Shown here: piece by piece, positions 14,839 through 19,557 of the stretch | Layout: each line of letters begins with the position of its first letter | How positions within the stretch are numbered: position 1 is the first letter of the stretch | Sequence record: MN296515 | DNA length: 50,309 nt | Strand: one strand, 5' to 3' | From: Shigella phage Sfin-3 | Notes under the pieces: model-generated | Told to the model about the DNA's origin: nothing | What the model saw: the letters and a program-made list of their open reading frames with translations, nothing else | Database searches by the model: none | Translations under genes and position numbers: made by a program

Positions 14839-15226
14839 GTTATCAGCGGCGGCGCGAGCCGCTTTTCTATCAAAGTACAGAGACTTTCCTCACTACATGG
14901 AAAACAGAAATTTCATACCGCCGAAGGATGGCGGGATGTGGCTGAGGTTCAACTACATTGAAGGGGATACGCTTTATCTATCCATTGACAGAAAGTGTAA
15001 ATCTTACATCGCAATCGTTCAGATCGGAGTAGTGTTCCCTCCAGGATCCGGCGTTGACGAAGCAAGATTGAAAGCAAAAGAGATTGCTGATTTTTTCAAA
15101 GATGGTAAAATGCTTAACGTTGGTTATATTTTCGAGGGTGCAATCGTGCATCAAATTGTTAAACATGAAAGCGGGTGGATGATTCCGGTTCGCTTTACAG
15201 TACGAGTAGACACAAAGGAGACTTAA
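14828..15226 (+). CDS. putative tail terminator/neck protein
   Basis: 132 aa; immediately upstream of tail tube gene. Confidence 0.45.
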   Translation: MHYELSAAARAAFLSKYRDFPHYMENRNFIPPKDGGMWLRFNYIEGDTLYLSIDRKCKSYIAIVQIGVVFPPGSGVDEARLKAKEIADFFKDGKMLNVGYIFEGAIVHQIVKHESGWMIPVRFTVRVDTKET

Positions 15227-15228
15227 TT

Positions 15229-15897
15229 ATGCACTTACCAAATGGCGCGCAAATTTTCGTGGAAACCTCTCGCGGAGAAGAGATTGAGGCAACCGCTATT
15301 ACTAACGCAGAAAATCCTGTTGCTACAGTTGCATCTAAGGGCGACTTAGTAAAAGGCGATTACGTTATTGTAACTCAGTCAACCTGGGCCAAGATGGTCA
15401 GTCGAGTGCTAATTGTTACTGACGCTCAGGAAACAAGCATCACTCTCGCTGGGATTGACACCTCTGATACTCTTGTTTTCCCGGCTGGCGGTACGATGAG
15501 CTTTGCAAAAATTACTGGCTGGACTGAGATTCCTTGTGTACAGGAGATTGGTAAGGACGGCGGCGAGCAGCAGTATTATACTTATCAGTGCTTGTCCGAC
15601 GATAAAGAACAGCAGATCCCAACGTTTAAATCTGCGATCTCGCTAACTTACACATTCGCGCACGAATTTGATAACCCGATCTACCCTATTCTGCGTAAGC
15701 TGGATTCTTCTGGTCAGGTAACTGCGGTTCGGATGTATGTTCCAAAAGCGAACGAGATGCGCATGTGGGCTGGTATCTTGTCTTTTAACGACATTCCATC
15801 TACGCAAGTAAACGAAATGGAAACGGTACAACTCGCCGTATCACTGAAGGGTGATTTCACTTTCGTTTCATCCGCTCTGGCATCACCTGGTGCCTAA
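15229..15897 (+). CDS. major tail (tube) protein
   Basis: 222 aa; AAGGAG RBS; position before chaperone/tape-measure genes; followed by terminator. Confidence 0.6.
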   Translation: MHLPNGAQIFVETSRGEEIEATAITNAENPVATVASKGDLVKGDYVIVTQSTWAKMVSRVLIVTDAQETSITLAGIDTSDTLVFPAGGTMSFAKITGWTEIPCVQEIGKDGGEQQYYTYQCLSDDKEQQIPTFKSAISLTYTFAHEFDNPIYPILRKLDSSGQVTAVRMYVPKANEMRMWAGILSFNDIPSTQVNEMETVQLAVSLKGDFTFVSSALASPGA

Positions 15898-15909
15898 ATC
15901 ATATCCACA

Positions 15910-15934
15910 GGGGGCTTGCGCCCCCTTATTCATT
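15910..15934 (+). terminator. rho-independent terminator candidate
   Basis: GGGGGC-ttgc-GCCCCC followed by TTATTCATTT (interrupted T-tract); after tail tube gene. Confidence 0.5.
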
Positions 15935-15973
15935 TCTGTAAAATCATCGTATCAAGTTTGCACTATTCTCTTT

Positions 15974-15988
15974 TAACAAAAAGTGCCA
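15974..15988 (-). promoter_or_regulatory. orphan palindrome copy, antisense to late operon
   Basis: Minus-strand reading TGGCA-ctttt-TGTTA between tail tube and chaperone genes; 22 nt then TACGAT on minus strand. Confidence 0.35.
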
Positions 15989-16010
15989 TTAACCAATCAG
16001 GAGAAATATC

Positions 16011-16328
16011 ATGGCTAAATTTAATTTCGTTCTTGGTCAACTTCCAGACTTCAAACTTCCAGTCACCTTCACCATGCCTAACGGTGAAGATGCAACGATC
16101 ATTTTCACTGTACGCCACCTTTCCAGTAAAGAAGTTCAGGATATGTATGCCAACCAGGGAGAAATGAACGACAGCGAGTTCATTACCAAGATCGCGTCAG
16201 GATGGAACCTTGAAGAAGAATTTAACGAAGAAAATGCGCGAAAACTGGTTCAGTATTATCCTTCAGCAGCGTACAACCTGACAGCAACTTACATCAAGGC
16301 TCTCGCCGGACACCGCGCAAAAAACTAA
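16011..16328 (+). CDS. tail assembly chaperone (lambda gpG-like)
   Basis: 105 aa immediately upstream of tape measure; ends at slippery heptamer A-AAA-AAC. Confidence 0.7.
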   Translation: MAKFNFVLGQLPDFKLPVTFTMPNGEDATIIFTVRHLSSKEVQDMYANQGEMNDSEFITKIASGWNLEEEFNEENARKLVQYYPSAAYNLTATYIKALAGHRAKN

Positions 16329-16645
16329 AAAGGGCGGTCTATCTGTTATATCAGAAGCCGCCAACAGAGGAACAATTGCGATCGGTTGGTTTAAGTCTTT
16401 CCGACTATGAAGACGAGGAACCTGAAACGATAATTGGCGACGCTGAAATGGTGAAGGCTTGGAATGTTTTTACATCAATGCTCACTCAGTGGAGAAGTTC
16501 AGGCGCTGGCGCTTATGGTCTTGACTATAATGTTTTGCCTATGTTGTTTAAAATCTATAAAATAGAAGATGAAGAACTGGCATTGCAGGACGTTAGGATC
16601 ATGGAAGCGAAAGCGCTTGAAATGATTGCTAAGCAGAATAACTAA
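16011..16645 (+). CDS. tail assembly chaperone, -1 frameshift fusion product (lambda gpGT-like)
   Basis: -1 frame is open from slippery site 16319-16325 to TAA 16643-16645; frame phase of downstream ORF matches a -1 shift. Confidence 0.55.
16319..16325 (+). other. -1 programmed ribosomal frameshift slippery heptamer A-AAA-AAC
   Basis: Zero-frame codons GCA-AAA-AAC-TAA; -1 frame stays open for 107 codons to 16645. Confidence 0.6.
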
Positions 16646-16647
16646 GC

Positions 16648-16665
16648 CGCCGTCTGGCGTTTTTT
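16648..16665 (+). terminator. weak terminator candidate
   Basis: 4-bp stem CGCC/GGCG then T6, just upstream of tape measure gene. Confidence 0.3.
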
Positions 16666-16683
16666 GTATATAAGGGGGGTTAT

Positions 16684-19557
16684 ATGGTTGATAAGGTAGC
16701 AGGTCTATCGCTTGACGTTGATGTGTCGACAGTGCAGCGCGCCGTCAAGTCATTGAAAGAGTTTTCAAAAGCTAACGACCAAGCCGCTGACTCTATGGGG
16801 TCTTTAATCAATGAGGCCGAGGTTGCAAAACAGAAGGCTAAAGAACACGCTGAGCAACTTAAGCGCCAGCGCAAAGAGTACGAGGCTGTAGAAAAGGCAA
16901 TCGATCCTACAGTATCAAAAATGGAAAGGCTGAAGATTGCATCTCAGCAGCTTGATAAACTCTGGCAAAAGGGTGTTGTTCCAGATGAAACATTTTTCCG
17001 TTTGGGTGAAATGCTGGACATGCAAAATGCAAAACTTGCTCGCAGCCGAGCCATGCTTACTGAAGAGGGGCAGGCAGCATTGCAGGAAGCGAAAGCAAAA
17101 GAGCAGGCAGCAGCGAAAAACAAAGCGTTCATGGATTCCCTGAACAGTCAGGTTAACGCTATTGGCAAAACTCACGCAGAGTTAATGGAACTGAAAGCGG
17201 CTCAGCTTGGACTATCAAATGAAGCAGCGCCACTGATCGCAAAACTGAAAGAGCAGGGTCGAGCCATGAATGCCGCAGGTATTAGCGCGGGGCAATATAG
17301 GCAGGCAATGCGAATGCTTCCTGCACAGATTACCGACGTCGTTACATCTCTTGCGTCCGGTATGCCAGTTTGGATGGTTGCCATCCAGCAAGGCGGTCAA
17401 ATCAAGGACTCGTTCGGCGGGATCGGGAATACGTTTAAGGTATTGCTCAGCTATATTAATCCGGTCACAGTTGGTGTTGGTGTTCTTGTCGGCTCTTTAG
17501 GTCTTCTTGCGAAAGCTGGTTATGACTCTTACAAGTCAATAACTGATATGCAGAAGGCTCTTGTTGAGACTGGAGGTTATGCAGGAGTCACGGCTGAAGA
17601 ACTTGATTCTGTTGCTAAAAAGGTGTCTCAGACGAGCAATTCAACAATTTCAAGCATTCGTGAGATTGTTACTGAACTTGCCAGTACGGGGAAGTATACG
17701 CGAGAGCAGATTCAGAACATCACAAAGGCTACCGCTGAGTGGTCGACAGCAACCGGTAAATCAGCAAGTAAAATCATCGCTGAGTTCGATAAAATCGCAA
17801 GCGATCCTGTAAAGGGTCTGGCTAAACTTAACGAGCAATACAACTTTTTAGAAAAAGGGCAACTGACATATATCGATACGCTAAGCCGCACTAAGGGTGA
17901 AACAGAGGCAGTGTCTGAAGCCACGAAATTATTCGCCGATGTAATGGAAAAACGAATGAAGTCGATCGCTGATAATGCTACCCCTCTGGAAAAAATGTGG
18001 AACGATATTAAGCAGTGGGCCTCTGATGCGTGGGGGTGGGTTGGGGATCATACTCTCGGAGCATTAAACCTGATTATTGACGTAGTTCAGGGTACGGTAA
18101 TTCAGGTAAAAATGATTCTGGCGAAGGGTGATGAGTACATCTCAAACTTTATAGCCTCTGCAATTAAGGCTACGCAGTCTCTGCCTGGAATGAGTGATTT
18201 CGGCGCTGATGTACTGAAGGAGCAGGAGAACATCGTAAAAAGTTCTCGCGACAACTACGATCAGTTGGCTTCAGAGCTTGATGCCATCAACGCTCGTGTA
18301 GAAAAAGGCGAGATGGGATACATTGAAGCAATGAGGCAGCGTCGCACTCTTGAAAAGCAGTACAGCGAGGAAACTAAGGAAGCAATAAGGAAAGAAGCAG
18401 AAGAGATCGAGAAGCGAAACCGAGAACGAAATAAGCAGTCGAAAATTGTACGCTCACCGACAGAGCAATTCGACAAGGAGTTAATTTCACTCAAGGCTCA
18501 ACTTAAGGTATTGCAGGAGCACAAGGAGATCGGGCAAAAACTTTCCGCACAGAGAAAAGCGCTGTTTACGACCGAGGCAACGATTGCTGTTCTTCGTGAA
18601 GCCAGTTCTAAGCGTCAGTTGTCTGCGGAAGAAAAAGCGTTGCTGGCAAGTCAGGAGAGAGTTATTGAGCTTGCAAAACAGAAGGCCGAGATTGGCGATC
18701 AGATTGTTAAGCAACAACAGTTGAATGATCTTACCGATAAATCTCTGAAGTTTGTCAATGAGATGACGGCGGCGACAGAACAGCTTAACGCGTCACGCGG
18801 TCTTAGCACGCGCGAGATGGAACGACAAGCGGAACTGGCTAAAATAACCACTGATTACATCAACTCTGGAGGTAGTGAGGGAGACGAAAAACTCCAGAAC
18901 ATGATTAAGGCGCAAAATGATTACTATGCTGCGGAAGATGCCAAGCGCGCTGACTGGTTAGCTGGTGCTGAAAGCGCATTTGCAGATTACGGCGATTCTG
19001 CAATGGATATGTACGGCAACGTGTATGATATCGCGTCAAGTTCACTTAACGGAATGAGTGATATGATGACCCAATTCCTGACTACAGGTAAGGCAAACTT
19101 TGAGGACTTTGCGAAAAACATCATTAGCATGATTATAAAGATGATTGCTCAGATGGTAATCTTCAATACGATCTCAGGCATGATGGGCGGTAAGACGTGG
19201 AGCTTTGCTGGAGTGGCGTCGTCTGGTGCTTCTGCGGCATCACAGGCAACCCCTACGCCTGCCGCCTCCGGTTTTAGGTCTTTATCATCTGGCGTTGCTG
19301 TTACCTCGCTTGCTGCCGCAGCTGGTAGTGTGGCAACATCTGGATTTAACGCATCTAAAGCAGCGCCGAAGGCAGTAAACCAATCAGCAGGTGGGACGGT
19401 CGTTGACGTTAGGGGCATGGAGGTTAAAGTTGACAATGGTTCAGATCCGAGAGGAATTTCTCAGGGCGTAGAGATGATGTTCAAAAAAATGATTCGCGAG
19501 TCTTGTTCGCAGGGCGGTGAGGTTTACAATTACATTCAGGAGAAAACGGGAGGCTAA
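16684..19557 (+). CDS. tail tape measure protein
   Basis: 957 aa; coiled-coil-rich N-terminal two thirds, hydrophobic segment, Gly/Ala/Ser-rich C-terminus; classic position. Confidence 0.9.

Follow-up and report, generated by a model that had tools for sequence, protein, structure and literature searches.

A predicted G/GT-type -1 ribosomal frameshift on A_AAA_AAC in the gene for the tail assembly chaperone of a T1-like phage

The -1 frameshift of the G/GT tail assembly chaperone of phage lambda, on the heptamer G_GGA_AAG, was reportedly described by Levin et al. (1993) and by Xu, Hendrix and Duda (2004, 2013). The lambda class has since been summarized (PMC5009743), and a frameshift efficiency of 6-7% has been measured for HK97-like chaperone genes (PMC3711429). 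Within the Drexlerviridae, a G/GT-like frameshift has been published for Klebsiella phage Skenny (Webervirus), deposited as a joined coding sequence at 18116..18756 (GenBank MK931444; PMC6763657). In Escherichia coli, experiments have established the heptamer A_AAA_AAC as a -1 site of low efficiency, in IS1 (PMC4066793, PMC5009743), where it serves the insA-insB' frameshift (Sekine and Ohtsubo; Escoubas et al. 1991; both cited in PMC4066793); it ranks among the weaker heptamers in E. coli and is less slippery than A_AAA_AAG (PMC5009743). A literature search returned no description of an A_AAA_AAC site in T1 or Tunavirus, only the Skenny note and general reviews. Here, we describe a site of this kind in the tail module of a T1-like phage and compare it with these systems.

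The window is the whole stretch of DNA that was analyzed (50,309 nucleotides of Shigella phage Sfin-3; MN296515), and all features given below lie on its plus strand. It is a T1-like phage (Drexlerviridae, Tunavirus); over the 1.9 kb around the site, Escherichia phage AV106 and Shigella phage ISF002 (both Drexlerviridae, Tunavirus) match it at 99% identity. The upstream neighbor of the chaperone pair (15175..15897) matches Pfam Phage_tail_3 (PF08813; E=4e-70) and is the tail tube gene, annotated as major tail protein in relatives; close relatives have its start annotated at an ATG equivalent to about 15229. The downstream neighbor (16684..19557) is the tape measure protein gene, with matches to TMP_2 (PF06791; E=8e-75) and Tape_meas_lam_C (PF09718; E=7e-25), and the pair lies between the two, in the G/GT position. 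Further flanking tail genes recognized with Pfam encode a tail terminator (PF13554) and a minor tail protein (PF05939).

The first open reading frame of the pair (16011..16328; 105 aa, 11.9 kDa), the gene G analogue, encodes a member of a recognized chaperone family, with an end-to-end match to Phage_TAC_4 (PF08748; E=5.5e-37, 127 bits against a cut-off of 21) and assignment to phrog_569 and phrog_17368. The T analogue is a -1 extension of 106 sense codons plus a stop (16325..16645) that matches DUF1799 (PF08809; E=2.7e-12). In phrog_17368 (213 positions), G occupies positions 1-107 and the extension positions 109-212; because this family spans both halves, fused products of the Phage_TAC_4/DUF1799 family are already in databases. 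A database search with the 211-aa fusion returned only two fragments of the downstream open reading frame and was uninformative on natural in-frame fusions. A PDB sequence search gave no meaningful match, and thus no solved homologue by sequence, while an Rfam scan of 15850-16750 gave one sub-threshold chance match and no described RNA family.

Reading from ATG 16011, the G frame ends GCA AAA AAC TAA (16317-16328). The slippery heptamer A_AAA_AAC (16319..16325) consists of the last base of GCA and the final two sense codons of G, and in the 0 frame it has the X_XXY_YYZ form of canonical tandem-slippage -1 frameshifting. The UAA stop (16326..16328) abuts the heptamer and overlaps the -1-frame Leu codon CUA (16325-16327). 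The first-pass annotation had placed the end of the open reading frame and the heptamer at these same bases, and its reading is exact. Two open reading frames are tabulated here, one of 105 aa (16011..16328) and one of 89 aa with a TTG start (16376..16645); 16011 mod 3 is 0 and 16376 mod 3 is 2, which puts the second frame in the -1 phase relative to the chaperone, again as annotated. The -1 frame is free of stops from about 16229 to 16645 and the +1 frame is closed. Past the heptamer, the -1 frame holds 106 sense codons (16325-16642), ending in AKQNN, followed by TAA (16643-16645). An earlier count of 107 open codons had the right end at 16645 and was one too many, since it included either the stop or the re-read AAA. 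Likewise, the fusion product had been put at ~23 kDa and is computed here as 24.1 kDa for 211 aa. Within the 100-nt overlap of the two frames, no other heptamer or A_AAG-type tetramer stands in frame.

As a bare motif, AAAAAAC shows no enrichment: the two strands together hold 17 copies, and 15 +/- 3.8 are expected. Its placement was assessed among the 46 in-frame XXXYYYZ heptamers in open reading frames of at least 80 aa. The heptamer at 16319-16325 takes up the final two sense codons of its frame, and none of the 46 has a -1 extension reaching farther beyond the stop (105 codons; the median total -1 extension is 8); the few other heptamers with long -1 extensions are located in spurious overlapping frames. 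The placement of the heptamer, rather than the abundance of the motif, is non-random.

We infer, with a probability of about 93%, that a short G and a long GT are made by -1 ribosomal slippage on A_AAA_AAC. Most ribosomes would translate 16011-16325 and terminate at the UAA (16326-16328), releasing the 105-aa G. A small fraction would slip back by one base on the heptamer (16319-16325), either in tandem, with tRNA-Lys moving from AAA to AAA and tRNA-Asn from AAC to AAA, or through tRNA-Lys alone slipping in the P site; the two pathways differ in whether GT residue 105 is Asn or Lys. After the slip, CUA AAA AGG and the codons that follow would be read in the -1 frame up to 16645, yielding a 211-aa GT with the DUF1799 domain as its C-terminal half, and the T analogue would be translated in this form only. 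Relatives with only an A_AAG or A_AAA tetramer at the same Lys codon suggest that slippage of the single tRNA-Lys may suffice. The slip would probably be tuned by the stop directly 3' of the heptamer and by a hairpin at 16333-16362. The low efficiency of A_AAA_AAC fits a need for a small GT:G ratio. By analogy with lambda (PMC5009743, PMC13581612), G and the G part of GT would coat the tape measure protein and the T part would recruit tail tube subunits, neither protein being present in the virion.

The mechanism class is the textbook one of lambda G/GT, and the feature as such is already known; judged by sequence, the paradigm is found here in a different, nonhomologous chaperone family. Shared with lambda are the position between the tube and tape measure genes, an extension about as long as G and without a start of its own, and, as predicted here, low-efficiency recoding that gives two chaperone isoforms with a common N-terminal core. 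The differences lie in the protein families, in the slip site (A_AAA_AAC here and G_GGA_AAG in lambda), in the 0-frame stop that abuts the heptamer, and in the predicted hairpin 7 nt downstream. A Pfam scan at E<=0.01 matched only Phage_TAC_4 and DUF1799 and none of the lambda G/T families. The chaperone pair is therefore put forward as a predicted functional analogue of lambda gpG/gpT, without homology detectable by the Pfam test.

Skenny shares with our phage the protein family (~48% identity in G), the synteny and a -1 extension of ~105 codons, but its shift region reads GCA AAA GTT TAA, with an A_AAA tetramer and no canonical heptamer, and lacks the GGCGG/CCGCC hairpin. IS1 has the identical heptamer, the host translation apparatus and a low-efficiency shift yielding a fusion protein (predicted here) in common with the present site; its product is a transposase rather than a phage chaperone, no stimulator is established for it, and its stop codon is not known to abut the heptamer. 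The E. coli dnaX site (tau/gamma; A_AAA_AAG) likewise has an A-rich heptamer that tRNA-Lys decodes; the stem-loop that follows it within a few nucleotides has its counterpart here in the candidate hairpin. It differs in its far more slippery AAG second codon, in an upstream Shine-Dalgarno (SD)-like stimulator, of which there is none at the right distance here, and in its outcome: dnaX shifts at ~50% to a shorter product, whereas the predicted shifted product here is longer.

Relatives were collected as 35 IMG/VR loci found with the G protein and 80 found with a profile of diverse G proteins, to which GenBank loci were added from the Drexlerviridae subfamilies, Dhillonvirus, and Pectobacterium, Vibrio, Ralstonia, Yersinia and Pseudomonas phages. 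Across the resulting 94 distinct G..T segments, the G/GT architecture is conserved: all but one keep a -1 extension that is 103-107 codons long and stops shortly before the tape measure gene, at identities down to 26-38% and in a range from Tunavirus to Vibrio, Ralstonia and Pectobacterium phages. A slip-prone motif stands at the homologous last codons of G throughout, except in one low-quality assembly. The commonest form is A_AAA_AAC plus a stop (66/94 segments; Tunavirus and most other clades), followed by A_AAA_GTY (GCA AAA GTY TAA) in 19 segments from Webervirus and A_AAG_GTC (GCA AAG GTC TAA) in 6 Rogue1-like segments. G_GGA_AAC with TAG or TGA occurs in two (Vibrio phage Marilyn and a Ralstonia phage), and CAA_AAG with TAA in one (Pectobacterium phage Sabo). 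Segments of the A_AAA_AAC class never differ at the heptamer's three synonymous positions, while all four bases occur at the third position of the Arg codon before it; the heptamer is invariant across relatives whose neighboring synonymous sites are saturated. In Dhillonvirus CS16, the -1 frame opens just 2 codons ahead of the stop, and the shift must therefore occur on the heptamer.

The exception to the conserved extension is locus L079 (IMGVR_UViG_2974632794), which at ~1205-1225 has A5 for A6 at the slip site, putting T in the +1 frame; T itself contains another indel in this locus, for which reason we regard it as a low-quality assembly. Prematurely truncated G frames were seen in L034/L129 and L036. 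A different architecture was considered for these loci and for L079 and rejected in favor of indels in low-quality assemblies; the variants are most likely homopolymer or indel assembly errors and no real variants.

The same set of relatives bears on transcriptional slippage, by which RNA polymerase would add an extra A in the A6 run (16319-16324) and so create a subpopulation of mRNA with G and T in one frame. Some IS elements and Thermus dnaX exploit slippage on A runs (discussed in PMC5009743), the present site contains a homopolymeric A run, and the A5 variant of L079 indicates that run length can be miscopied or misread, although the second indel in that locus marks a poor assembly. Efficient transcriptional slippage takes runs of ~9 or more, however, and this one has six. 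Relatives of the same architecture with G_GGA_AAC, A_AAG_GTC or CAA_AAG have no usable homopolymer run, so the family-wide mechanism cannot be polymerase slippage, and we consider it extremely unlikely for this phage.

Open reading frame callers and most GenBank/RefSeq records show two coding sequences instead of one recoded gene, which would imply an 89-aa DUF1799 protein initiated at TTG 16376 (16376..16378) and working apart from G. In this genome, a GAGG (16367-16370) does lie 5 nt upstream of that TTG. The TTG is not conserved, however, being TTA in T1 and CTT or TTA in many other relatives. No ATG, GTG or TTG occurs in the -1 frame from about 16229 to 16375 of the window; the first possible in-frame start is extension codon 41 in many relatives, and Webervirus and Dhillonvirus have no start within the first 44 extension codons. 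The annotated starts also differ between public records; in the T1 RefSeq entry, ST39 is a 55-aa fragment from extension codon 50. The -1-overlapping frame is thus one without a conserved start of its own.

The 17 codons (51 nt) between the heptamer and TTG 16376 are conserved as protein. Their mean amino acid identity is 86% in the -1 frame versus 55% and 60% in the other two, at a nucleotide identity of 82%, and the minimum changes per codon position are 9/8/28 in the -1 frame (p=2e-4). Upstream of the heptamer, the changes follow a 0-frame periodicity (19/13/43), which gives way at the heptamer to that of the -1 frame. An independent gene would leave the 17-codon stretch untranslated, so its conservation as protein counts against two genes. 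Since the -1-frame coding constraint comes without a start codon, translation appears to cross from the 0 to the -1 frame at the heptamer with no initiation codon, which in sequence comparisons is the signature of recoding. TTG 16376 probably does no more than encode a Leu inside GT, and two independent genes are very unlikely, although a minor independent 89-aa product may be made in this genome. The first-pass annotation had treated the 16376 frame as the frameshift extension and not as an independent gene, and had assigned it to G/GT-type recoding; the nonconserved start and the -1-coding upstream codons support the former, and the chaperone family, synteny, conservation, lack of an independent start and coding signature, all predictions at the level of sequence, support the latter.

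Initiation could also be coupled to termination, with ribosomes stopping at UAA 16326 and restarting nearby in the -1 frame. The tight layout of stop and extension superficially resembles that of coupled genes, but in the window the -1 frame has no start codon for 48 nt downstream and 97 nt upstream of the stop, relatives share no conserved one, and the conserved LKRAVYL begins at the stop codon itself. Reinitiation is thus almost certainly not the source of the extension, and ribosomal slippage on A_AAA_AAC has the best support of these models.

A candidate stimulatory hairpin (16333..16362) begins 7 nt after the heptamer, with GGCGGU/GCCGCC and UCUG/CAGA pairing and a 6-nt loop. Its predicted folding energy is -15.4 kcal/mol (z=-4.2; 0/200 shuffles as stable), it persists in a 131-nt fold, and it is in the top 1% of local 42-nt windows for stability. 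Equivalent hairpins are found in 32 of 46 distinct A_AAA_AAC relatives, while Dhillonvirus and Vibrio phage Marilyn have hairpins that are equally spaced but of other sequence. Rogunavirinae, Braunvirinae, Webervirus and some Tempevirinae relatives lack the hairpin. In the covariation analysis, 75% of cells are paired versus 34-50% in slid controls; compensatory pairs are few and the structure was derived from the window itself, so we treat the hairpin as a candidate only. Its arms also encode conserved RAV and PP residues, and their conservation may therefore reflect coding. A clade-restricted role of 16333-16362 as a stimulator is plausible.

Next to the heptamer on its 3' side is a second A-rich run, TAAAAAG (16327-16333), which serves as the spacer to the hairpin and is read as CUA AAA AGG in the -1 frame. 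It varies among relatives (AAAAAG, AAAACG, AAAAAA) and therefore is probably no signal of its own.

Upstream, no SD-like element of the dnaX/IS911 type was found about 10-14 nt from the heptamer: GCTCTCGCCGGACACCGCGC has no GGAG, GAGG or AGGA core, and the AAGG nearest to the heptamer is 18 nt upstream. An upstream SD-like stimulator was rejected, there being none at a plausible distance.

Nearly all members of the family have a stop immediately next to the slip site, in keeping with the classical 'shifty stop' idea. The abutting stop and the hairpin, at its fixed 7-nt spacing, could together form a composite, evolutionarily tunable stimulator ('shifty stop' plus structure); we offer this tentatively, the odds being somewhat against it. 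If it were true, members of the Phage_TAC_4/DUF1799 family would offer a natural allelic series in which to dissect what sets -1 frameshift efficiency in bacteria.

Two terminator-like elements flank the chaperone genes. Between the tube and chaperone genes, a terminator scan found an intrinsic-terminator-like hairpin (15909..15926; -14.6 kcal/mol, z=-2.8), a strong GC hairpin followed by a T-rich tail, and T1 RefSeq, Skenny, Motto and CS16 carry a rho-independent terminator annotation at the homologous site. Its probable effect is that the chaperone gene is transcribed less than the tube gene. Between the GT stop and the tape measure start, a short CGCC/GGCG hairpin with a T6 run (16646-16666) begins directly after the stop. 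Its predicted fold is weak (-6 kcal/mol, z=-0.8), but the records of T1 (19508-19527), Skenny, Motto and MM01 have terminators annotated at homologous sites.

Several deposited records were examined alongside. Both chaperone frames are labelled 'tail length tape measure protein' in RefSeq (NC_041995, NC_005833 and others) and in PHROG (phrog_569, phrog_17368, phrog_680), a label that is a propagated misnomer. For Klebsiella phage KLB26 (PP556865; 901-1529), the G..T span is entered as a misc_feature with the remark 'unable to determine intron boundaries'; the submitters saw a split gene and missed the frameshift, whose site reads GTA AAA AAC TAA. A T1-like chaperone gene ~55% identical to ours occurs in 21 'Campylobacter phage' records (e.g., MG065673, Campylobacter phage A119), where it is unexpected and suggests contaminating or misassigned coliphage-like sequences.

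The finding leaves the understanding of recoding unchanged, and its main value is for annotation. In the T1 reference (NC_005833) and nearly every Tunavirus record, the chaperone is entered apart from a truncated 'second gene', with an inconsistent start for the latter, and these two-gene records leave 47-149 nt of conserved coding sequence unannotated. We agree with the first-pass proposal that the recoding anchors the annotation of the tail module, here through the predicted 211-aa GT fusion, and it improves on the deposited two-gene annotation. It supplies structural work and defence-sensing studies on tail assembly chaperones with the correct GT protein, and it flags a site to be left intact in the engineering of T1-like phages.
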